A stretch of 64,000 bases of DNA. It comes from Escherichia coli (lineage in GTDB: Bacteria > Pseudomonadota > Gammaproteobacteria > Enterobacterales > Enterobacteriaceae). Below the pieces are notes generated by a model. It was not told where the DNA came from. It saw only the letters and a program-made list of their open reading frames with translations, and searched no databases. The position numbers and the translations under genes are program-made. The DNA lies in NCBI RefSeq assembly GCF_003018255.1, contig NZ_CP027440.1; one strand, given 5' to 3'. Below, piece after piece: positions 14,586-53,893 of the stretch; positions within the stretch are counted from its first letter, which is position 1; each line of letters begins with the position of its first letter.

Positions 14586-16127
<1,542 letters not shown>

Positions 16128-16195
16128 CCTTAAAGAAGCGTACTTTGCAGTGCTCACACAGATTGTCTGATGAAAATGAGCAGTAAAACCTCTAC

Positions 16196-16272
<77 letters not shown>

Positions 16273-16314
16273 AATTTGCACGGCAAATTTGAAGAGGTTT
16301 TAACTACATGTTAT

Positions 16315-16390
16315 GGGGCTATAGCTCAGCTGGGAGAGCGCCTGCTTTGCACGCAGGAGGTCTGCGGTTCGATCCCGCATAGCTCCACCA
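16315..16390 (+). tRNA. alaT: tRNA-Ala (anticodon TGC) in the 16S-23S spacer
   Basis: ggggctatagctcagctgggagagcgcctgctttgcacgcaggaggtctgcggttcgatcccgcatagctccacca. Confidence 0.97.
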
Positions 16391-16564
16391 TCTCTGTAGT
16401 GATTAAATAAAAAATACTTCAGAGTGTACCTGCAAAGGTTCACTGCGAAGTTTTGCTCTTTAAAAATCTGGATCAAGCTGAAAATTGAAACACTGAACAA
16501 CGAAAGTTGTTCGTGAGTCTCTCAAATTTTCGCAACTCTGAAGTGAAACATCTTCGGGTTGTGA

Positions 16565-19470
<2,906 letters not shown>

Positions 19471-19567
19471 ACAACGCCGAAGATGTTTTGGCGGATGAGA
19501 GAAGATTTTCAGCCTGATACAGATTAAATCGACATGTCATAACGAGACGTGTTGATAAAACAGAATT

Positions 19568-19687
19568 TGCCTGGCGGCCTTAGCGCGGTGGTCCCACCTG
19601 ACCCCATGCCGAACTCAGAAGTGAAACGCCGTAGCGCCGATGGTAGTGTGGGGTCTCCCCATGCGAGAGTAGGGAACTGCCAGGCAT
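19568..19687 (+). rRNA. rrfA: 5S ribosomal RNA
   Basis: tgcctggcggccttagcgcggtggtcccacctgacccc ... gggaactgccaggcat; 120 nt. Confidence 0.97.
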
Positions 19688-28634: not shown

Positions 28635-28782
28635 GATTCGCCTGAACATGCCCTTTTTTCGTAAGTAAGCAACATAAGCTGTCACGTTTTGTGATGGCTA
28701 TTAGAAATTCCTATGCAACAACTGAAAAAAAATTACAAAAAATGCTTTCTGAACTGAACAAAAAAGAGTAAAGTTAGTCGCG

Positions 28783-28891
28783 TAGGGTACAGAGGTAAGA
28801 TGTTCTATCTTTCAGACCTTTTACTTCACGTAATCGGATTTGGCTGAATATTTTAGCCGCCCCAGTCAGTAATGACTGGGGCGTTTTTTAT
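28783..28891 (+). ncRNA. spf: Spot 42 small regulatory RNA
   Basis: gtagggtacagaggtaagatgttctatctttcagacc ... cccagtcagtaatgactggggcgtttttta; intrinsic terminator; location just 3' of polA. Confidence 0.9.
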
Positions 28892-28957: not shown

Positions 28958-29605
28958 TTATTCGCCGTCCTGCGTTTCTTCTACAGGCTGCATCTCGCTA
29001 AACCAGGTATCCAGTTTCTGCCGCAGCTTGTCCACGCCTTGTTTCTTCAGCGAAGAAAACGTTTCAACCTGCACATCACCGTTAAACGCCAGCACCGCTT
29101 CACGCACCATATTCAATTGCGCTTTACGTGCGCCGCTTGCCAGTTTGTCCGCTTTGGTCAGCAGTACCAGCACGGCGATATTGCTGTCTACCGCCCACTC
29201 AATCATCTGCTGATCCAAATCTTTCAGCGGATGGCGAATATCCATTAGCACCACCAGACCTTGCAGGCTCTGACGTTTTTCGAGGTACTCGCCGAGCGCG
29301 CGCTGCCATTTGCGCTTCATCTCTTCCGGGACTTCCGCATAACCGTACCCAGGCAAGTCAACCAGACGCTTGCCGTCAGCCACTTCAAACAGGTTGATAA
29401 GCTGGGTGCGCCCCGGGGTTTTTGAGGTACGAGCCAGGCTTTTCTGGTTAGTCAGCGTGTTCAGCGCGCTGGATTTACCTGCGTTGGAACGGCCTGCAAA
29501 AGCCACTTCAATTCCGGTATCGGAAGGTAGGTGGCGAATATCAGGCGCACTCATCACAAAATGCGTCTGTTGATAATTCAAATTAGTCAAAGCGGTCGTC
29601 TCCAT
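28958..29605 (-). CDS. engB: Ribosome biogenesis GTPase EngB/YihA
   Basis: ORF 28958..29605 minus; G1 motif GRSNAGKSS; exact start uncertain (possibly a non-ATG start a few codons downstream of the ORF-track Met). Confidence 0.88.
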
Positions 29606-29860
29606 CAGTCAAAGCTTTGCGGCGATTATACCTGAACCATAATAAAAGGCGGATTTTTCGGCGTGAGCGTTGTAAGTAAAAGCCATATGCTTTGTGAGAC
29701 ATTGCCGATAGTCTTTATGCGAAATAGCAGAGAAAATTCTGCGACGTATGTCAAATAAGCTATATAAATCAGTGAATTGCTTTTATATAAAACTCTGAAA
29801 ATGTGCAAATACTGATGGCGGTTGATTGTTTATTTAAAGCAAAGGCGTAAAGTAGCACCC

Positions 29861-30104
29861 ATAGAGCGAGGACGCTAACAGGAACAATGACTCAGGATGA
29901 GGGTCAGGAGCGCCAGGAGGCGAAGACAGAGGATTGTCAGGAAGATAAACGTCCGGAGACGTAATTAAACGGAAATGGAATCAACACGGATTGTTCCGGC
30001 TAATGGAAAAACAGGGTGTGTTGGCGGCCTGCAAGGATTGTAAGACCCGTTAAGGGTTATGAGTCAGGAAAAAAGGCGACAGAGTAATCTGTCGCCTTTT
30101 TTCT
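29861..30104 (+). ncRNA. csrC: CsrC small RNA (CsrA-sequestering)
   Basis: About 245 nt with many GGA motifs in predicted loops (caggaa, caggatga, caggag, caggagg, caggaag, acggattg, caaggattg, tcaggaa), ending in terminator gcgacagagtaatctgtcgccttttttc; position between engB and yihI. Confidence 0.85.
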
Positions 30105-30171
30105 TTGCTTGCTTTCTGTTAGATTCCGCCGCAAATCTATACTGAATAAAACGGCTAAAAGACGAACCATT

Positions 30172-30681
30172 ATGAAACCATCATCTTCAAACTCACGCAG
30201 CAAAGGTCATGCAAAAGCGCGTCGAAAAACACGCGAGGAGCTGGATCAGGAAGCTCGTGACCGTAAGCGTCAGAAAAAACGTCGTGGTCATGCGCCGGGC
30301 AGCCGCGCAGCGGGCGGTAACACCACGTCAGGCAGCAAAGGCCAGAACGCACCGAAAGATCCACGTATTGGCAGTAAAACCCCTATTCCATTGGGCGTGA
30401 CTGAAAAAGTCACCAAACAGCACAAACCGAAGAGTGAGAAACCTATGCTTTCACCGCAGGCGGAGTTGGAGTTACTGGAAACGGATGAGCGTCTGGATGC
30501 GCTGCTGGAACGTCTGGAAGCAGGCGAAACCCTGAGCGCCGAAGAGCAATCCTGGGTGGATGCCAAACTGGATCGTATTGATGAGTTGATGCAGAAACTC
30601 GGCCTCTCTTATGACGATGACGAAGAAGAGGAAGAAGACGAGAAGCAAGAAGACATGATGCGTCTGCTGCGGGGCAACTAA
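30172..30681 (+). CDS. yihI: Der GTPase-activating protein YihI (169 aa), basic N-terminus and acidic C-terminus
   Basis: ORF-track frame 30109..30681; start placed at [19 protein letters not shown]. Confidence 0.88.
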
Positions 30682-32289: not shown

Positions 32290-32400
32290 CAATGTGCTGA
32301 GAACAAGATTGCCTGATGCGCTACGCTTATCAGGCCTGCAAAATCTGTTGAAAATATTGCTTTTGTAGGCCGGATAAGGCGTTCACGCCGCATCCGGCAT
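32290..32400. repeat. REP/BIME palindromic elements
   Basis: gcctgatgcgctacgcttatcaggcctgc ... gtaggccggataaggcgttcacgccgcatccggca. Confidence 0.6.
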
Positions 32401-32432
32401 GAACAAAGAGCACTTCATCAGCAATCTGAAAC

Positions 32433-35211: not shown

Positions 35212-35238
35212 AGAAAAAAGCCCATGCAGAGATGGGCT
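35212..35238 (-). terminator. Terminator after glnA
   Basis: Minus-strand hairpin cccatctctgcatggg followed by a T-run. Confidence 0.55.
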
Positions 35239-35298
35239 GAAAGTTTCCACGGCAACTAAATCCCGGCGTTGTTGCGCCGGGTAGTACAACTTCAACTA

Positions 35299-36790: not shown

Positions 36791-36930
36791 AAGCGAAAAC
36801 TGTGCCAACTTTTAAATTGCCCCTAAAAGGCGTTATCATGCTTAACATCGTGCAAAAGGGCTGCACCATGATGTGAATGTTGCACCAATATAGTGCTTCA
36901 ATGGAAACATTAAGCACCATATTGGTGCAA
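36791..36930 (-). promoter_or_regulatory. glnA control region: sigma-54 promoter glnAp2 (TGGCAC-N5-TCGCT) and upstream NtrC enhancer sites
   Basis: Minus-strand ttggcacagttttcgct at 36791-36808; NtrC-like palindromes tgcaccaatatagtgct (36881-36897) and gcaccatattggtgca (36914-36929). Confidence 0.75.
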
Positions 36931-37080
36931 TGACCTTTGGATAACCCTTTTTATGCTCCGTGAAAGCGATCACAAAGGGACTCTGCAATACTTGTTTGCG
37001 GAGGATGTTTGTGATCCTGTTTTGTAGTGCGATTAATCCGTGTACAATAACGCGCTATTTCTAATGCCTGAGGCAAAGTT

Positions 37081-42186: not shown

Positions 42187-42245
42187 TTAGTGGCCGGATG
42201 TGCTTAATCCGGCCAACGAAAACCGTATCAACCGAAGTTTCAATT

Positions 42246-43034
42246 TCAGGATACTTCTTGCTCGGCAACCACCAGTTCAACATTCTCTTCACTTAACAAC
42301 TGGCAGAAAGAATTGGGAGGCGGGGCATCAGTAAAAAAAGCCCTGACATTCCGTGCATTGCCAATTGAAACGGCAGCAGACGCGGTAAACTTCGTATGAT
42401 CGGCCACTAACAATGTATTCCGCGCATGTTTAATCATCGTTCTCGCGACTAACGCTTCATTGACATCAAATTCCAGTAGGGTGCCGTCATGTTCAATGGC
42501 ACCTATACTGGTGATTAAATAATCTGCGCGGAAGCCTTCAATAAAATCCACGGCTCCTGGGCCGATAATCCCACCGTTATGAGCGCGTAAAGTGCCTCCC
42601 GGCACCATCACTTCAATATCCTGATTCTTATAAAGAATCTGTGCCACACGCAGGCTATTAGTGATAATGCGTAAATCACGCCGGTTGAGTAATGCCCTGG
42701 CAACGGCTTCTACGGTTGTACCGATGGTGATAAAGACGGTACAGCGTTCGGGAAGGTAATCGGCGACTGCCTCAGCGATCGCCCGTTTCTCGGCGGTGAG
42801 CGAAAGTTCCCGTTGCTCAAAAGCGGTATTCATGACGCTGGAGACGCGCCCGGCCCCTCCATGATGACGGGTGATCAAGCCCTGCTCACTGAGTTTTCGG
42901 ATATCCCGGCGCACGGTTTGCGTTGAAACATCCAGCAGTTGTGCCAGTTCTTCAATATTCATATAACCGCGTTCTGCGATTAGATGAACGAGTTGGTCAT
43001 GGCGTGGATTACCTGTCACTTCGATGATACTCAT
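42246..43034 (-). CDS. DeoR-family transcriptional regulator, YihW/CsqR-like (262 aa)
   Basis: ORF 42246..43034 minus; N-terminal HTH (MNIEELAQLLDVSTQTVRRDIRKL) plus sugar-phosphate-binding domain; adjacent to kinase/aldolase genes. Confidence 0.8.
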   Translation of the reverse strand: MSIIEVTGNPRHDQLVHLIAERGYMNIEELAQLLDVSTQTVRRDIRKLSEQGLITRHHGGAGRVSSVMNTAFEQRELSLTAEKRAIAEAVADYLPERCTVFITIGTTVEAVARALLNRRDLRIITNSLRVAQILYKNQDIEVMVPGGTLRAHNGGIIGPGAVDFIEGFRADYLITSIGAIEHDGTLLEFDVNEALVARTMIKHARNTLLVADHTKFTASAAVSIGNARNVRAFFTDAPPPNSFCQLLSEENVELVVAEQEVS

Positions 43035-43073
43035 GAATACTCCCTTGCCCCTCCTCGGTAGATGTTTACCATT

Positions 43074-43970
43074 TTACGCATAAAGTGACAAAAATGATTC
43101 GGTTTGCTCACGATTAGGAATGCCGGCCCGACCGCCAGGCTGGGTACATTTCATCGCGGCAACCGCACTGGCAAAACGAATAGCCTCTTTTGTTGGCATT
43201 TTTTCTGCCAACGCTACCGCGAGTGCGCCGTGAAAAACATCGCCTGCTCCAGTGGTATCAACCACATTGACAGAAAATGCCTCCTGTTGACACAAATGAC
43301 CATCTTCAATCCACAACGATCCTTCAGAACCCAGCGTAACATACACTTTACCTGCTGTTTGTGTCGTTGCCTGGAACAAACCTTCTTCAGGTGACTGCAG
43401 GCCAGTCATGCGTTTCAGCCCAGGTGTTGAGAACACGGCGTGATCGGCAAGCGCGACAAGTGGAGAAATATCCTGCGGTGTCATATCGGCGTCTAAAAGC
43501 GTTGTCACACCCGCAAGGCGCGCTAGCGAGAATGCTTTTTCAGTACCGCTATGCCAGCGAACATCGGCCAGAATCAGATCATAACGAGAGAAATCGATCG
43601 CTTCTAACCATTCGGCATCAGTACCGAGATCAGGACTTGGATAATTAACGATAATCCGTTCGCCATGCTGATCAACGAGGATCGCTGATTGCGACGAACG
43701 GGCGTTAGGATATCGGCGGCAAAATGCGGTATTGACGCCCCAACCCTCAAGTTCTGCAAGTAAGGTATTTCCACAACTGTCATCGCCGACGCGACCGATG
43801 AAATCAACCTCCACGCCAAGCTTTGCGATTGCAACAGCGGCTGTTGCTGCCGGGCCGCCACCAATCTCAAGATAATGATTTGCCTGATATTTCCCGCCGC
43901 CCTCCGGCAGAGTGGGCAAAGAATAAATCCTGTCCTGAACTGTGATACCCACGCATGCAATTCTGGTCAT
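43074..43970 (-). CDS. PfkB-family sugar kinase, YihV (sulfofructose kinase)-like
   Basis: ORF-track frame 43074..44021 minus; start probably at [13 protein letters not shown] (43970); PfkB signature [14 protein letters not shown]. Confidence 0.8.
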
Positions 43971-44142
43971 ATTTGTCTTGTCCTGTTTAATTTTGTCGTC
44001 TTTGGTCAATTTAAATGACACAAATGATCAAATTAGTGATGCGTGTCGTGTTTTTGAACATAAATTACAAATATGCTCAAAAACAGACGAAAACGAATTT
44101 TCAATTGTCATTATTTTGTCAATGTCAGACAGGAGAGTATTC
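43971..44142. promoter_or_regulatory. Divergent promoter/operator region between the kinase gene and the reductase-aldolase operon
   Basis: AT-rich intergenic DNA with reiterated tttgtc-containing motifs (ttttgtcgtcttt, ttttgtcaatgtc, atttgtcttgtcc), a pattern expected for DeoR-type operators; RBS aggagag before 44143. Confidence 0.4.
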
Positions 44143-45021
44143 ATGGCAACCATTGCATTTCTCGGGCTGGGGCAGATGGGTAGCCCAATGGCTAACAATC
44201 TATTGCAAAAAGGGCATTCATTGCAGGTATTTGATGTCAATGCACAGGCCGTCGATGTGCTAGTTACGCAGGGGGCCACTGCGGCACAAACCCCAGCGGA
44301 AGCAGCAGCAGGCGCTGAATTTATCATCACTATGCTTCCCAATGGTGACATTGTTCGACAGGTTCTGTTGGGGGAAAAAGGCGTCTGTGAGGCTGTTTCA
44401 TCTGACGCGTTATTGATTGATATGTCGACTATTCATCCCTTACAGACCGATGCATTAATACGGGAGTTACAAGAAAAAGGCATCAGTATGATGGACGCTC
44501 CCGTGGGCAGAACGTCCGTGAATGCGATTGATGGCACATTGCTGATTTTAGCGGGTGGCACTGATGAGCAGATTGCACGTGCACGCCCGATTCTCATGTG
44601 CATGGGTAATGAACTGGTCGAGGCTGGCGGCCCAGGAATGGGGATCCGCGTGAAGCTAATTAACAACTATATGAGCATTGCGCTTAATGCGCTGTCCTCC
44701 GAGGCCGCTGTGTTATGTGAGTCACTGGGATTAAATCTTGATGTCGCAATTAAGGTGATGAGTGGTACGGCAGCAGGGAAAGGACATTTTACGACCACCT
44801 GGCCTGGCAAAGTGCTGAAAGGCGATCTTTCACCCGCCTTCATGGTGGATCTGGCGTTGAAAGATCTGCGTATTGCAGTTGACGTCGCTCGGGAGACGGG
44901 GGCACCGCTCAATATGGGGATTGCAGCAGAAAGTTATTACGCCGCAGCAAGTCAAGACGGCAAAGGGCGGCAGGATTGGAGTGCCCTGCTAAATCAGGTT
45001 CGCCAGCAGGCTGGTCTTTAA
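44143..45021 (+). CDS. NAD(P)-dependent beta-hydroxyacid dehydrogenase family reductase, YihU (sulfolactaldehyde reductase)-like (292 aa)
   Basis: ORF-track frame 43942..45021; start placed at ATG 44143 after RBS; Rossmann motif [13 protein letters not shown]. Confidence 0.8.
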
Positions 45022-45045
45022 TTTTATCTATTAACAGGAGTTTCT

Positions 45046-45933
45046 ATGTCATCCCACTTCACCCCATTTACGCTGAAAGATATCTCCCGCCCAGGTGGTG
45101 GATTCGCCATGTTAGCTGTCGATCAGCGTGAGGCCATGCGCCTGATGTTTGCGGCAGCAGGGCAGCCAAAACCCATCGCCGACAGTGTACTCACCGATTT
45201 TAAAGTTGCCGCGACCCGAATCCTTTCTCCTTATGCTTCTGCCGTTCTGGCGGATAAACAATTTTGTCTTGAACAAATAGTCGAGCAGGGCGCTGTGGCT
45301 AATTCTTGCGGCCTGATTGTCGCTGCCGATCTTTTTATCCCAGGTAATGGCATCCCGGTTGATAGCGTTGAAATAGATATGTCCGTCGACCCGCATAAAG
45401 CCCGTGAAATGGGGGCTAAGGCAATGAAATTACTTGTACTCTGGCGTGAAGATGAACCCGCAGAGGAACGTCTGGCAATGGTTGATAAATTTGTTCGTCG
45501 CTGCCGTAGTGCCGGGCTGGTTAGCATTATTGAACCTGTGGTGCGTCCACCTCGTCGCGGTTGGGACTTTGATCGTGAAAGCGCCATTGTTGCCGCCGCC
45601 GCAGAGCTTGGTGGAACAGAGGCTGATCTTTACAAAGCCGAGATGCCATTAGGGGGCAAAGGCGATGAAAAAACCTTACTTGCCGCCTGTCAGCAACTTA
45701 ACGATCAGATGAAGATGCCGTGGGTAATTCTTTCTTCTGGCGTTGATGCCGATATTTTTGGCCGTGCAGTAAGTATTGCCATGAAAGGTGGTGCGTCGGG
45801 CTTCCTGGCTGGACGAGCGGTATGGGCGTCGGTTGTTGGTGCACAAGATCCACAAACCATGCTGCGCGATGTCTCCGTTCCACGCTTGCAACGGCTGGCT
45901 GAAATTGTCGATGAAGGTATCGCGCAACGCTAA
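45046..45933 (+). CDS. Class I aldolase of the LacD/YihT (sulfofructose-phosphate aldolase) family (295 aa)
   Basis: ORF 45046..45933; [13 protein letters not shown] motif region characteristic of YihT/LacD-like aldolases. Confidence 0.8.
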
Positions 45934-45965
45934 TCCCCTATGGATATCGATTCTGGAGAATAACA

Positions 45966-46976
45966 ATGGATAAAATTACCCAGGTTTTATTTTCAGATAT
46001 TGGGAAAGTCACCACTCAATATGTTGAAGTACCACACCAGCAACTTAAACCGCACGAAGTACGGATTGCGCCCGTGTTCTACGGGATATGCGGTTCGGAT
46101 CTGCATGTTCTGAAAGGCGGTCATCCGTTTGCCAAGCCGCCTGTCGTCCCCGGTCATGAAATTGCAGCGCGCGTTACGGAAGTGGGCAGCGACGTTAAAA
46201 ATGTACAGCCGGGCGATCATGTTGTGGTCGATCCCATCATGGCTTGCATGGAATGCCGAGCCTGCAAAGCAGGACGTTTTAATCTTTGTGAACCACCGCA
46301 GGTTGCTGGTTTTCGCGCACCGGGCTTTGCTCGCTCACAACACATTGTTCCTGCGCGTAATTGCCATGTCGCACCAGCCTCTTTACCGCTAAAAGTGTTG
46401 GCCTTTGCCGAACCGGCGGCTTGTGCTCGTCACTGCGTTAACCGAATGCCGAAAGCTTCTCTGGAAAGCGTACTGGTGATTGGTGCCGGAACGATAGGCT
46501 TATCCATCGTGCAGGCACTGCGCATTATGGGGGCAGGTAAGATTACCGTGATTGAACCTGACGCTGCCAAACGCGCGCTGGCGTTAAAGCTGGGCGCAGC
46601 AGAAGTTTGGGCACCAGGTGAGCTGGCCGCAGATGTGAGATTTACGGGGGCGATTGATGTCGTTGCAGCGCAGGCCACGCTTAACGATGCATGTACCCGT
46701 GTATATGCCGGAGGCACCGTCGTGTGCATGGGCGTACCAAGTGGGCCGCGTGAAATACCATTACCGATGATGCAACGTTTCGAGCGTGACTTGCTCAACT
46801 CTGGCATGTACATCCCTGAAGATTTCGATGCTGTTATCGAATGGCTGGCGGATGGGCGGTTTGATACCAGTGAACTGGTTACCGATTTATTTGCCATTGA
46901 GGATGCAGCGGCGGCATTCGAACGCGCGCAGCAAAATGACTCCATAAAGGTCATGCTGCAATTTGCGCCGGAATGA
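45966..46976 (+). CDS. Zinc-dependent medium-chain alcohol/polyol dehydrogenase (sorbitol/threonine dehydrogenase-like, 336 aa)
   Basis: ORF 45966..46976; catalytic Zn ligands (GICGSDLH, GHE) and structural Zn cysteines (CMECRACKAGRFNLC); Rossmann motif GAGTIG. Confidence 0.8.
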   Translation: MDKITQVLFSDIGKVTTQYVEVPHQQLKPHEVRIAPVFYGICGSDLHVLKGGHPFAKPPVVPGHEIAARVTEVGSDVKNVQPGDHVVVDPIMACMECRACKAGRFNLCEPPQVAGFRAPGFARSQHIVPARNCHVAPASLPLKVLAFAEPAACARHCVNRMPKASLESVLVIGAGTIGLSIVQALRIMGAGKITVIEPDAAKRALALKLGAAEVWAPGELAADVRFTGAIDVVAAQATLNDACTRVYAGGTVVCMGVPSGPREIPLPMMQRFERDLLNSGMYIPEDFDAVIEWLADGRFDTSELVTDLFAIEDAAAAFERAQQNDSIKVMLQFAPE

Positions 46977-47045
46977 TTTTCTAAATCTCTGTCTGGCGCT
47001 GCGTCACGTCAGCGCCACCCTACAACAATTAAAAAGGACACTGCG

Positions 47046-48479
47046 ATGAGTCAAATCACCAGTCCTGCAACTTATTCAATTAGTCGGCCACAGGACGTAA
47101 TTGATATTGTTAATAAGAACTCTGCAATCAACACCAGTATCGGCGTTATTTTTATTGCTTTGGGCGGCATATTGATTGATGCCTACCAGGTGGCGATGGT
47201 GGGGTTTGGTAATAAATACATTGCCGCTCAATTCGGCATTTCTCCGGGTCTTGCTGCGACCGTCAATGCGTCAGTATTAATCGCCGCGTTAATTGGCGGT
47301 TTATTAGCGAACCGAGTAATAAACCGCTTTGGGCAAAAGCGGGCATTTATTATTGGCATGGGGCTGTGCACCATCGGTGCTGCAGCGGTAGCTATTGCTC
47401 CCAGTATCTGGTGGGTGCTGGTGTGCCGCGTCATCATGGGCTTTGGTTTAGGCATCGACTTCCCTTTGGCAACTAATGCCGTGGCAGAGCTTCGTGGTTC
47501 AACGTCGAAGAAAACCGGAACGTCGGTCAACCTCTGGCAAATGGCCTGGTATGTTTCGACAACCGTTGTTTATTTGGTGCTTTTGCCGCTGCTTCTGTCG
47601 GGTATCGCTGAAGAACAATTGTGGCGTTACGGAATATTCATCGGAGCTATTTTTGCAGTCATCTTCATGATTTTGCGTTACTTCTTTATTGGTGAATCCG
47701 CAATGTGGGCCGCACGCGTTGGGCGTTACCAGGAAGCGTGCGACATTCTGGGAAAACGTTATGGTGTTCAGGCTCGCGTTGCGGCATCGGGTACAACAGA
47801 AGCGAAATTCTCGGAAAAAGCAGAGAATAAATACAGTGGTGGATATGGCATCTTATTTAATGATCGTTACCGCAAACGCACCATTCTTGGCTGTGTCGTG
47901 GCAACCATGCAGGCGTGGCAATATAACGCCGTAGGTGTTTATCTTCCTCTTACGTTGGCGGGAATAATAAGTGGCGGGCTTACTGGCGCGTTGACCGGTT
48001 CTGCCGTCGTGAATGCCCTTTGTGGGGTGACAGGTGGGATGATCGGCTCGTTTATTCTCCAACGACTGGGTACTCGCCGACAGTCGATGTATGGATTTGC
48101 TGTTGTGACCTTAGCATTGCTGTCGTTAGGCGCACTGGCAACGACTAATCCTTGGCTGTCTTTAGGGTTATTGGGATCAATTATTTTCTTCCATTCAGCG
48201 GGTCCTGGTGGGCTGGGCATGACCATTGCCACACTCTCTTATCCTCCCGCTATTCGCCCTACTGGGGTCGGATTTGCCCGCGCTATTATGCGCACAGGGG
48301 CAATTGCAGGACTCATTTTCTGGCCGATGCTGTGGGGTGCGTTGAAAACTGAAGCGTTTTACTGGTTGGCAATCGTGCCATTCCTGGGATTCCTAACCTG
48401 TGTATTGATTAATTGGGAACCACTGGGTGCAAATGTTGATGCTGAGGACGCAGAGGTTCTGGCTGAATTGAAGAAATAA
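47046..48479 (+). CDS. MFS transporter (477 aa)
   Basis: ORF 47046..48479; about 12 TM helices; RBS aaggac. Confidence 0.75.
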   Translation: MSQITSPATYSISRPQDVIDIVNKNSAINTSIGVIFIALGGILIDAYQVAMVGFGNKYIAAQFGISPGLAATVNASVLIAALIGGLLANRVINRFGQKRAFIIGMGLCTIGAAAVAIAPSIWWVLVCRVIMGFGLGIDFPLATNAVAELRGSTSKKTGTSVNLWQMAWYVSTTVVYLVLLPLLLSGIAEEQLWRYGIFIGAIFAVIFMILRYFFIGESAMWAARVGRYQEACDILGKRYGVQARVAASGTTEAKFSEKAENKYSGGYGILFNDRYRKRTILGCVVATMQAWQYNAVGVYLPLTLAGIISGGLTGALTGSAVVNALCGVTGGMIGSFILQRLGTRRQSMYGFAVVTLALLSLGALATTNPWLSLGLLGSIIFFHSAGPGGLGMTIATLSYPPAIRPTGVGFARAIMRTGAIAGLIFWPMLWGALKTEAFYWLAIVPFLGFLTCVLINWEPLGANVDAEDAEVLAELKK

Positions 48480-48480
48480 T

Positions 48481-48514
48481 TTAATGCGCATCGGCTTAAG
48501 CCGATGCGCATTAA
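48481..48514. repeat. Perfect 34-bp palindrome between the two transporter genes
   Basis: ttaatgcgcatcggcttaagccgatgcgcattaa read directly; no downstream T-tract. Confidence 0.6.
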
Positions 48515-48577
48515 TTCAAACTGCCCACGTTTAGTGGTTCGTATCCCAGATTTCTCGCCTACCAGGAGAGGAAAATT

Positions 48578-49927
48578 ATGTCTGAAAAGTTACCCGCACC
48601 GCGTGAAGGGCTTTCCGGTAAAGCCATGAGACGTGTCGTTATGGGCAGTTTCGCAGGCGCGTTAATGGAATGGTATGACTTCTTTATTTTTGGCACGGCA
48701 GCAGGACTGGTATTTGCACCGCTGTTTTATCCAGACAGCGATCCTTTTATAGGTCTTATAGCTTCCTTTGCGACCTTTGGTGTCGGTTTTCTGACTCGTC
48801 CTTTAGGGGGCATCGTCTTTGGTCATTTTGGCGATAAAATCGGGCGAAAAATAACACTTATCTGGACGCTGGCTATTGTCGGTTGCTCCACATTTTTGAT
48901 TGGTTTTATTCCGACGTATCAGGAAATTGGCATTTGGGCACCGCTTGTATTAATGGTGCTGCGTTTGATTCAGGGCTTTGGTCTTGGTGGCGAGTACGGT
49001 GGAGCGGCATTGATGACCATAGAATCAGCGCCCGAATCCCGACGCGGATTTTTAGGTTCACTCCCGCAAACGGCTGCGTCTGTGGGTATTATGCTGGCAA
49101 CCGGTATTTTTGCTCTCTGTAACCATTTTCTTACTTCGGAGCAGTTTCTCTCCTGGGGATGGCGCATTCCGTTTTGGCTTTCTGCGGTGATGTTGATCGT
49201 TGGGCTGTTTATCCGCCTACATACCGAAGAAACGCTGGATTTTCAAAAGCAAAAAACGACGAATAATAAAGAAAAGTCCGTTCCTCCGTTGATTGAATTA
49301 TTCAAAAAACATCCACGAAATATTTTATTGGCACTGGGTGCGAGGCTGGCGGAAAGTGTCTCCTCTAATATTATTAATGCCTTTGGTATTGTCTATATTT
49401 CCAGCCAATTAGCATTGTCGCGAGATATTCCCCTGACGGGTATGTTGATTGCCTCGGCGATCGGTATTTTCAGTTGTCCATTGGTTGGATGGTTATCAGA
49501 TCGTATAGGTCAAAAAAGTCTGTATTTGTCGGGAGCAGGATTTTGTGTCCTGTTCGCGTTTCCTTTCTTCTTATTATTGGATAGCAAAAGTACGCTCATC
49601 ATCTGGTGCAGTATGATCCTCGGCTACAACTTAGGTCCGACGATGATGTTTGCCGTGCAGCCAACACTTTTCACCCGCATGTTCGGTACCAAAGTACGAT
49701 ATACCGGCCTTTCTTTTGCTTATCAATTTTCCGCGATTCTTGGCGGACTAAGCCCCCTTATCGCCTCAAGTTTGCTGGCGCTAGGGGGAGGAAAACCGTG
49801 GTATGTCGCTCTGTTTTTATTTGCTGTCTCAGTTCTTTCCTTTGTTTGCGTCTGGCTGATTGAGCCGACCGATGAACAAGAAACCGCTTCTTACCGCTAC
49901 ATCAGGGAACAATCTCATGAAAACTGA
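48578..49927 (+). CDS. MFS transporter of the metabolite:H+ symporter (MHS, ProP/KgtP-like) type (449 aa)
   Basis: ORF 48578..49927; MHS-like N-terminal motifs (GALMEWYDFFIFG, GHFGDKIGRK). Confidence 0.75.
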   Translation: MSEKLPAPREGLSGKAMRRVVMGSFAGALMEWYDFFIFGTAAGLVFAPLFYPDSDPFIGLIASFATFGVGFLTRPLGGIVFGHFGDKIGRKITLIWTLAIVGCSTFLIGFIPTYQEIGIWAPLVLMVLRLIQGFGLGGEYGGAALMTIESAPESRRGFLGSLPQTAASVGIMLATGIFALCNHFLTSEQFLSWGWRIPFWLSAVMLIVGLFIRLHTEETLDFQKQKTTNNKEKSVPPLIELFKKHPRNILLALGARLAESVSSNIINAFGIVYISSQLALSRDIPLTGMLIASAIGIFSCPLVGWLSDRIGQKSLYLSGAGFCVLFAFPFFLLLDSKSTLIIWCSMILGYNLGPTMMFAVQPTLFTRMFGTKVRYTGLSFAYQFSAILGGLSPLIASSLLALGGGKPWYVALFLFAVSVLSFVCVWLIEPTDEQETASYRYIREQSHEN

Positions 49928-50804
49928 ACGAAAAAACGAGCATTACCTGGCGCTACAACAGGCGTTTGACGCGCCATGGCCTGGGCCTGTAGGAGAGTTA
50001 GTGATGCTGGAAAAAGGCAATATTCACCTGCAGATTTATCCGCATGATGGTGCCAGGATAACCTCGTTAAAGGCATTTGGTTCTGAAGTATTACGCCAAT
50101 GGCAGCCGCAGCGCAGAGCTTTTCAGTATGGCTGTTTCCCAATGGTGCCGTGGGCAGGGCGACTGGGGAATGCGACGCTGAATGCTGGTGGGCAATGTTA
50201 TTCTTTACCCGCCAATAAACCACCACATGCGTTGCATGGTATGGCTTGTTACTCAACGTGGGAAATCATCGACAAAACAGCAGATTCCCTGACTTTACGT
50301 ATGCCCCTGGCTTCACCGTGGCCCTGGCAAGGGGAAGTGATTCAGACTTTTTTGCTGGAGAACGATGCGCTGGTTTTGCAACTGGAAGTCCATTCATATG
50401 CCGATACATTCCCGGCCTCCGCAGGCTGGCATCCGTGGTTTGCGAAAAAGCTGACTCCGCAAAATACAGAATCGTTGCAGGTGCTTTTTGATGCGGACTG
50501 GCAAGAAGAAGCGGGTAGTGATGAACTGCCAACTGGAAATCGTATCTCTCCTCAAGTCGGTCCCTGGGATGACTGTTTTGGTTTTTATGACGGGGTGAAG
50601 GTTAAGTTACTGTGGCCTGGTAAACTCGCGATGACCATGACCTCTTCTGCAAACAGTCTGGTGGTATTTGATAAACAGCCCGATGCCACCTGTATTAACC
50701 CGCTGACTCAGGCACCTAACGCAATAAATCTAACGCCGGAATTTGTGACACCAGATAAGCCGCTGGTCATCGAAACTCGTTGGCAATTTACACCTGAATC
50801 TTAA
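49917..50804 (+). CDS. Aldose 1-epimerase (mutarotase)-family protein, YihR-like
   Basis: ORF-track frame 49860..50804; start placed at ATG 49917 (MKTERKNE) after an RBS, overlapping the upstream stop by 11 nt. Confidence 0.7.
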   Translation: MKTERKNEHYLALQQAFDAPWPGPVGELVMLEKGNIHLQIYPHDGARITSLKAFGSEVLRQWQPQRRAFQYGCFPMVPWAGRLGNATLNAGGQCYSLPANKPPHALHGMACYSTWEIIDKTADSLTLRMPLASPWPWQGEVIQTFLLENDALVLQLEVHSYADTFPASAGWHPWFAKKLTPQNTESLQVLFDADWQEEAGSDELPTGNRISPQVGPWDDCFGFYDGVKVKLLWPGKLAMTMTSSANSLVVFDKQPDATCINPLTQAPNAINLTPEFVTPDKPLVIETRWQFTPES

Positions 50805-50811
50805 CCATTCA

Positions 50812-50850
50812 TCTATTGCGAAAAAGACAGTGAAATTACTCTGCTTTTTC
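50812..50850 (+). terminator. Terminator hairpin after the cassette operon
   Basis: ttgcgaaaaagacagtgaaattactctgctttttcgcaa inverted repeat. Confidence 0.6.
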
Positions 50851-50944
50851 GCAATCAGCATCACAAGATTACCCTTATTGCCACATAGCCAAACCCATCC
50901 TTTCCCGCTACAGTTAATTTCTTGTGGCGCGAAAGGAGGCAAAA

Positions 50945-52844: not shown

Positions 52845-53830
52845 GCCAGCTTCCAGGGTTGTCACGGGAAACAAGAGAGAGTATCGCTATGTATCACCTT
52901 CGGGTTCCACAAACAGAAGAAGAATTAGAGCGTTACTATCAGTTTCGCTGGGAAATGTTGCGTAAGCCCCTGCATCAACCGAAAGGTTCGGAACGCGACG
53001 CGTGGGATGCGATGGCGCATCACCAGATGGTCGTCGACGAGCAGGGTAATCTGGTGGCGGTAGGCCGACTGTATATTAATGCCGACAATGAAGCGTCCAT
53101 TCGCTTTATGGCCGTTCATCCCGACGTGCAGGACAAAGGGTTAGGAACGCTGATGGCGATGACCCTCGAATCTGTGGCGCGTCAGGAAGGTGTTAAGCGC
53201 GTGACCTGTAGCGCCCGCGAAGACGCGGTGGAGTTTTTCGCCAAGCTGGGGTTTGTTAATCAGGGAGAAATCACCACGCCAACCACCACGCCGATTCGCC
53301 ATTTTTTGATGATTAAACCCGTTGCCACTCTGGATGATATTTTGCATCGCGGCGACTGGTGCGCGCAGCTGCAACAGGCGTGGTATGAACACATCCCGCT
53401 GAGTGAAAAAATGGGCGTGCGCATTCAGCAATATACCGGGCAAAAATTTATCACCACCATGCCGGAAACAGGCAATCAGAATCCGCATCACACGCTGTTT
53501 GCCGGGAGTTTATTCTCGCTGGCAACGCTCACCGGTTGGGGGCTTATCTGGCTGATGCTGCGCGAACGCCACCTCGGCGGAACGATTATTCTGGCGGATG
53601 CGCATATCCGCTACAGCAAGCCGATTAGCGGCAAACCTCATGCGGTAGCCGACCTTGGTGCCTTAAGCGGCGATCTCGACCGTCTGGCGCGCGGACGAAA
53701 AGCACGGGTGCAGATGCAAGTAGAAATCTTTGGCGACGAGACGCCGGGTGCAGTGTTTGAAGGCACGTATATCGTTCTGCCCGCGAAGCCATTTGGCCCG
53801 TATGAAGAGGGCGGGAACGAAGAAGAGTAG
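52841..53830 (+). CDS. yiiD: GNAT acetyltransferase / thioesterase-fold fusion protein YiiD (FabY, 329 aa)
   Basis: ORF 52841..53830; 4-nt overlap with dtd. Confidence 0.85.
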
Positions 53831-53893
53831 GGGCGTTTTACTTGACTGAAAAGGTTTTCAATCTGAAAACCTTTTCTGGGCCCTGGTCCGGAG

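Follow-up and report, generated by a model that had tools for sequence, protein, structure and literature searches.

The csrC locus between yihA and yihI in a 64-kb stretch of Escherichia coli DNA

The csrC gene of Escherichia coli, reportedly first described by Weilbacher et al. in 2003, encodes a small RNA that serves as a decoy for CsrA, a global post-transcriptional regulator. GGA motifs in such RNAs are bound by CsrA dimers, best when they lie in hairpin loops, and one dimer can bridge two sites (PMC7652899). CsrB (RF00018), the second such decoy RNA of E. coli and a member of the same Rfam clan (CL00106), shares this decoy mode with its repeated GGA hairpins. The promoters of both genes are activated by UvrY and have an inverted repeat far upstream, and both RNAs end at an intrinsic terminator and are turned over by way of RNase E. 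CsrB is the longer RNA (about 366-369 nt, with 18-22 sites) and its gene adjoins syd. Its UvrY site is a near-perfect palindrome and IHF is needed, whereas csrC has a weaker repeat and no need of IHF. The same decoy principle, directed at CsrA/RsmA-family proteins, is used by RsmX, RsmY and RsmZ of Pseudomonas and CsrB1-3 of Vibrio. These RNAs are driven by GacS-GacA or VarS-VarA, the orthologues of BarA-UvrY, but have no detectable sequence homology to csrC, and they differ from it in genomic position and upstream sites.

For CsrC itself, a length of 242 nt with 14 putative sites and about nine CsrA dimers has been described (PMC3856055), against a count of nine GGA motifs in another study, in which CsrA-CsrC complexes were resolved in vivo by SEC-seq (PMC9808575). 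Activation of csrC by BarA-UvrY does not need IHF, and there is positive feedback from CsrA to UvrY (PMC4682653). Decay is initiated by RNase E (PMC7652899, PMC3856055). CsrD, triggered by EIIA-Glc under a preferred carbon source, has been described as required for CsrB/C turnover (PMC7652899); in a contrasting view, CsrC decay is independent of both CsrD and PNPase (PMC3856055).

Here we analyzed a locus within a 64-kb stretch of E. coli DNA, hereafter the window, whose positions are used throughout. Compared with csrC of E. coli K-12 (b4457; RF00084), it has the same 5' end, terminator, neighbors, 14 GGA triplets and UvrY 18-mer. It differs by two substitutions in the RNA and three upstream.

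Match of the locus to K-12 csrC

The whole window was scanned against the covariance models of Rfam 15 at the gathering threshold. The CsrC model RF00084 matched 29861-30114 on the plus strand with 276.1 bits (gathering score 61; E = 4.5e-87), covering model positions 1-255 of 255, and outscored the other overlapping members of its clan at the locus. Alignment to csrC of MG1655 (b4457, 4051036-4051281) gave 244 identical positions out of 246 over 29861-30106 (99.2%; two substitutions). The annotated K-12 5' end falls on 29861 (A, +1) and the 3' end maps to 30106. In the curated K-12 annotation the gene is entered as 'ncRNA csrC, b4457, small regulatory RNA CsrC', between yihA and yihI, with a length of 246 nt compared to the 242 nt given in the literature. 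Judged on sequence, the plus-strand segment 29861-30106 is almost certainly csrC of E. coli, a CsrA-sequestering decoy sRNA (Table 1), and no sequence feature speaks against this identification.

The original prediction, a CsrC-like sRNA in the engB-yihI intergenic region, had been staked on a match to the Rfam CsrC model. The match was found at full length, and the identification now goes further than proposed: with its K-12 identity and its yihA-yihI position, the locus is the csrC orthologue itself, engB being another name for yihA. Of the proposed span, 29861-30104, the start coincides exactly with the K-12 5' end, while the end falls 2 nt short of the K-12 3' end. The Rfam match and the K-12 identity also support the description of the motifs as the signature of a CsrA-titrating RNA and as known biology. 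Indeed, the copy in the window is an ordinary core-genome csrC allele, and its biology has been characterized since 2003.

Table 1. Features of the csrC locus (window coordinates)
Feature	Position	Strand	Basis
yihA (engB), divergent upstream neighbor	28958..29590	-	RefSeq annotation of matching strain and K-12
TGTAAG half-site	29671..29676	+	16 bp upstream of the inverted repeat
UvrY site, imperfect inverted repeat TGTGAGACATTGCCGATA	29693..29710 (-168..-151)	+	exact match to published 18-mer
Probable -35 hexamer TTGTTT	29826..29831	+	inferred; 16-nt spacer to TAAAGT
Probable -10 hexamer TAAAGT	29848..29853	+	inferred; 7 nt upstream of annotated +1
csrC gene, CsrA-sequestering small RNA	29861..30106	+	Rfam RF00084 and alignment to MG1655 b4457
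GGA-rich body, 14 GGA triplets (candidate CsrA-binding sites)	29870..30069	+	counting and chance test
Rho-independent terminator of csrC	30066..30105	+	18-pair stem (7 G-C), 4-nt loop, U tract
yihI, co-directional downstream neighbor	30172..30681	+	RefSeq annotation of matching strain and K-12

The two substitutions relative to K-12 leave every GGA triplet untouched, and all 14 are shared with K-12. One (29946, T for C) lies in a single-stranded linker. The other (30004, T for A) directly precedes a GGA; at this position K-12 is the exception, as the remaining Escherichia sequences of our alignment carry T. Three more substitutions separate the window from K-12 between yihA and the csrC +1, and the yihA-yihI intergenic region as a whole is 98% identical to K-12. 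No functional consequence is implied by any of the five. On a larger scale, the window is collinear with K-12 4020756-4088038 except for a few strain-specific blocks.

The locus is present in nearly all complete E. coli genomes. The intergenic region 29606-30172 was found in 5425 of 5426 genomes, in two of them at 100% identity. The csrC RNA alone was found in 5424 of the 5426, with an identity of 99% or more in 5317.

GGA motifs, RNA structure and conservation

On the RNA strand, a stretch rich in purines gives way to a long GC-rich hairpin and then to a T run. This strand contains 14 GGA triplets, nine of them AGGA and six CAGGA, compared to two on the minus strand of csrC. The 'at least nine' motifs of the original prediction were therefore an undercount, if a correct one, and nine is the number of AGGA. 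Consecutive triplets are spaced 6-32 nt apart, with about 12 nt between neighbors across the first eight. When a 254-nt frame was slid over the 64 kb, it contained on average 3.5 +/- 1.9 GGA. csrC is the maximum of the window on either strand, and the runner-up stretch has 11. Such a high concentration of AGGA/ARGGA in an intergenic region is one of the features by which CsrA-sequestering sRNAs have been recognized (Kulkarni et al. 2006, PMC1488887).

Two further readings of this enrichment were weighed: a GGA-rich intergenic stretch that arose by chance, and a CsrB-type paralogue in place of CsrC. The region is purine-rich, such that dinucleotide-preserving shuffles of the 254 nt alone yield 8.7 +/- 2.0 GGA, and CsrB and CsrC belong to a common clan. 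However, 14 or more GGA were reached in only 46 of 5000 shuffles, the strands differ 14 to 2, and CsrC is the top overlapping clan member with 276 bits. The position between yihA and yihI also differs from that of csrB, which sits at yqcC-syd (PMC1488887), and the upstream UvrY repeat is the csrC version and not the csrB palindrome TGTGAGAGATCTCTTACA. None of the marks of CsrB (CsrB as best clan match, syd as neighbor, the palindrome) was found at the locus. Chance enrichment and a CsrB paralogue were both rejected on the Rfam score, the shuffles, the K-12 alignment and the UvrY site, and the probability left to them is vanishingly small.

The triplets were placed on the Rfam consensus structure. 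Six lie in hairpin loops (GGA starting at 29870, 29895, 29916, 29931, 29955 and 30035), five in single-stranded linkers (29881, 29907, 29940, 29971 and 29977), and three in or at helices (29988, 30005 and 30067). Loops or linkers thus hold 11 of the 14, in keeping with the unpaired GGA expected of CsrA-sequestering sRNAs (PMC1488887). In the partition function, five GGA sites are fully unpaired with a probability above 0.8 and two further sites with a probability of at least 0.6.

The intrinsic terminator of the original prediction is real (Table 1), and a Rho-independent terminator is likewise a feature of this group of sRNAs (PMC1488887). The folding energy of the full csrC RNA is -86.4 kcal/mol (z = -7.3). 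With the terminator removed, the body folds at -57.4 kcal/mol (z = -2.97) on the plus strand, and the minus strand gives z = -3.80. Folding energy cannot choose the strand, because both strands beat their shuffles once the terminator is left out. The plus strand was instead assigned from the unequal GGA counts of the two strands, from the terminator and from the covariance model.

Related loci were recruited from species-representative genomes by the pattern AGCGCCAGGAGGCGAA ... CCGTTAAGG, whose two segments are conserved parts of CsrC and are invariant among the recruited loci by construction. The 34 loci came from Enterobacter, Citrobacter, Salmonella, Klebsiella, Pluralibacter, Lelliottia, Silvania, Huaxiibacter, Pseudocitrobacter, Escherichia and unclassified Enterobacteriaceae. 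The homologues carry 13-17 GGA apiece on the RNA strand, compared to 0-2 on the opposite strand. In an alignment of 35 sequences (mean column identity 80%), 13 of the 14 GGA sites are kept within +/-4 columns in 34-35 sequences. The remaining one, at the base of the terminator (30067), is kept in only 22 of 35. The cross-genus comparison in this way brings out the GGA sites and promoter elements that are under constraint.

The same alignment was used to examine the RNA structure. Positions paired in the Rfam structure can pair in 85.3% of cases over the 35 sequences, compared to 39-50% after a shift of the 3' partners by 1-3 columns, and on this ground the Rfam structure was relied upon. The terminator helix (16 pairs in the Rfam structure) is 98.9% paired. 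Compensatory pairs were found in hairpin 1 (columns 6-17; GC 21, AU 13), hairpin 5 (columns 101-109; UA 19, CG 14) and the long central helix (columns 139-171; CG 14, AU 13). Two of the five shuffle-control measures (pairs changed on both sides, and further pair types) were not above shuffles. For helix 2 and the central helix, the paired fractions are lowered to 61% and 64% because Escherichia/Citrobacter and Enterobacter are misaligned there by MAFFT. A structure computed with RNAalifold on the MAFFT alignment differed in part, joining the GGA-loop region to the 3' tail in a dubious long-range helix, and was set aside in favor of the Rfam structure.

The upstream region and the junction with yihI

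The probable promoter hexamers were placed using the K-12 5' end and cross-species conservation. TAAAGT is nearly invariant in the upstream alignment (33 of 35 sequences), and the TTGT of the -35 hexamer is invariant or nearly so. A generic sigma-70 scan of both strands over 29550-30250 called no promoter. A miss of the csrC hexamers is expected of such a scan, because the promoter would be weak and activator-dependent.

The imperfect inverted repeat TGTGAGACATTGCCGATA occurs once in the window. In E. coli, this UvrY site of csrC was established by ChIP-exo and footprinting (Zere et al. 2015, PMC4682653), and the TGTAAG half-site has been reported for csrC of both E. coli and Salmonella (PMC4682653). 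Across genera, the left half of the repeat is kept as TGT(G/A)(A/G)GA, and the half-site is kept as TGTAAG/TGTAGG in most of 34 sequences of the upstream alignment. Together, the two elements provide the conserved UvrY/SirA/GacA upstream site that accompanies CsrA-sequestering sRNAs (PMC1488887).

Three further upstream blocks are conserved: TCTGAAAAT at 29794-29802 (about -67..-59), AATCA at 29767-29771 (about -94..-90), and TATGCGAAAT near 29725-29734, just 3' of the UvrY repeat. These blocks may be sites of other regulators.

Taken with published K-12 work, these elements suggest how the locus would operate. By its sequence, csrC is an independent non-coding transcription unit in the yihA-yihI region, with a weak conserved promoter and the UvrY site about 160 bp upstream, at which BarA-UvrY, as in K-12, would activate transcription. 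The RNA of about 245 nt has its GGA motifs mostly exposed in short hairpin loops and linkers, and a strong intrinsic terminator closes it. A discrete RNA of this length is expected here, as shown for K-12 (PMC3856055, PMC9808575). By analogy with K-12, CsrC would sequester CsrA dimers and lower the amount of free CsrA, relieving the control of mRNA targets in glycogen synthesis, biofilm polysaccharide, motility and other processes, until RNase E degrades the RNA. That the allele in the window binds and antagonizes CsrA is likely from its 99.2% identity to K-12 and its retention of every GGA.

The neighborhood is conserved as well. Homologues of csrC have been described as always adjoining yihI and yihA (PMC1488887), and csrC lies between the same two genes in the window. 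All 34 related loci have a co-directional yihI downstream, and a divergent yihA precedes in 32, which are all those whose stored sequence reaches that far. The distance from the csrC 3' end to the start of yihI is 57-69 nt, mostly 65, in the 26 related loci measured.

The spacer between csrC and yihI (30107-30171, 65 nt) is itself strongly conserved in the 35 sequences, with a block TTTCTG(C/T)TAGATT and an invariant TATACT at 30138-30143. This spacer is probably the yihI promoter, with TATACT as its -10 element, set directly against the csrC terminator.

Such close packing could be read differently, with the locus acting mainly as a cis leader or attenuator of yihI, through read-through of the terminator from the csrC promoter, and CsrA sequestration coming second. 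The two genes are co-directional and 65 nt apart, and this distance is kept across the loci measured. A very strong and nearly invariant terminator (18 pairs and a U tract) separates them, however, and the invariant TATACT within the conserved spacer fits a separate -10 of yihI. In published work, moreover, CsrC is a discrete RNA, about 242 nt long and complexed with CsrA (PMC3856055, PMC9808575). A principal role as yihI leader is highly improbable on these grounds, and we retain csrC as a decoy RNA gene in its own right.

A weaker form of the idea keeps CsrA sequestration and adds a coupling in cis, whereby csrC transcription or termination would affect yihI expression. The route could be terminator read-through or occlusion of the putative TATACT promoter. 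We raise this because the junction of 57-69 nt is maintained in 26 loci and the spacer is conserved, but we consider the coupling very unlikely. YihI is a GTPase-activating protein of Der. If true, the coupling would tie csrC to ribosome assembly.

The other side of yihA carries a second small RNA gene. spf, for Spot 42 (Rfam, 122.8 bits), lies at 28772-28890 (+), about 1 kb upstream of csrC, and yihA is thus flanked by two global carbon-status sRNAs, Spot 42 and CsrC. In K-12, spf also encodes the small protein SpfP. About 48 bp of K-12 sequence just 3' of spf (4050043-4050091) are absent from the window.

Annotation of csrC and other features of the window

Neither matching E. coli strains nor Salmonella have a csrC RNA feature in their RefSeq/PGAP records, and a 'hypothetical protein' is annotated on csrC. 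The matching E. coli record, whose intergenic region is 100% identical, has over csrC only a pseudo-CDS, 'hypothetical protein; frameshifted; internal stop', at window positions 29887-30053 (+) (record-segment 2782-2948). This agrees with the expectation of the original prediction that protein-centric annotation misses such a gene. In the Salmonella record (NZ_CP019203.1, segment 2966-3190), an intact CDS of 74 codons, WP_001541209.1, spans csrC. Every E. coli hit listed has a 'hypothetical protein' under the match.

Read literally, these records would make the locus a decayed protein-coding gene, with the pseudo-CDS as its remnant and the 74-codon CDS on the Salmonella homologue as an intact counterpart. 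The sequence itself argues against coding. The longest plus-strand ORF inside the RNA has 28 codons, the ORFs are spread over the frames, and the RefSeq/PGAP CDS itself requires a frameshift and an internal stop. What is conserved across genera are GGA triplets and compensatory helices, with small indels that need not be multiples of three. The RNA covariance model matches at 276 bits, and the curated K-12 annotation is an ncRNA. Coding potential was rejected on ORF content, conservation pattern and RNA-model score, and a protein-coding origin is extremely improbable.

With csrC as an RNA gene, CDSs of the WP_001541209.1 type appear to form a spurious protein family that originated from an sRNA gene. 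Pipelines that consider proteins only would both miss a global regulator and propagate such a family.

Several 'plasmid' records (PLSDB) contain csrC, and carriage on mobile plasmids was considered and rejected. The records, including NZ_CP019203.1, are whole chromosomes (4.8-4.9 Mb) or pieces of 148-425 kb that carry the chromosomal core genes polA-yihA-csrC-yihI-hemN-glnG. Mislabelling or misassembly of these replicons is likely.

One block that differs from K-12 is an 8.6-kb segment (42234-50878) in place of the K-12 sulfoquinovose cluster ompL-yihOPQRSTUV-csqR (K-12 4063560-4075486). Its genes are those of a DeoR regulator, a sugar kinase, a YihU-like reductase, an aldolase, a Zn-dependent alcohol dehydrogenase, two MFS transporters and an aldose 1-epimerase, whereas a sulfoquinovosidase, an isomerase and a porin are absent. 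Of 5426 complete E. coli genomes, 1325 contain the full-length block.

A second block of about 2 kb unlike K-12 (53830-55841) lies between fabY and yiiE. According to the annotation of the matching strain, it encodes an alpha/beta hydrolase (-) and a pair formed by a small 'hypothetical protein' and a 'NadS family protein', which is possibly toxin-antitoxin-like.

In the glnA 3' UTR (35238-35287, -), a stretch of about 49 nt stands in place of about 161 nt of K-12 (4056452-4056613). This UTR encodes the sRNA GlnZ in K-12, and a shorter GlnZ variant is expected in this strain given the replacement. About 125 nt 3' of hemN (32305-32429) match K-12 only elsewhere and inverted (4080123-4079989; 83% identity), and are probably a dispersed intergenic repeat, of the REP type or another.

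The remaining Rfam matches include the ES222 sRNA (133 bits) at 36892-36999 (+) in the glnA-typA/bipA intergenic region and a SECIS_3 selenocysteine insertion element at 61554-61612 (-) inside fdoG. The rrnA operon occupies 14586-19685 (+), with 16S, tRNA-Ile, tRNA-Ala, 23S and 5S genes, and a StyR-44 match lies just upstream of the 23S gene (16458-16557).
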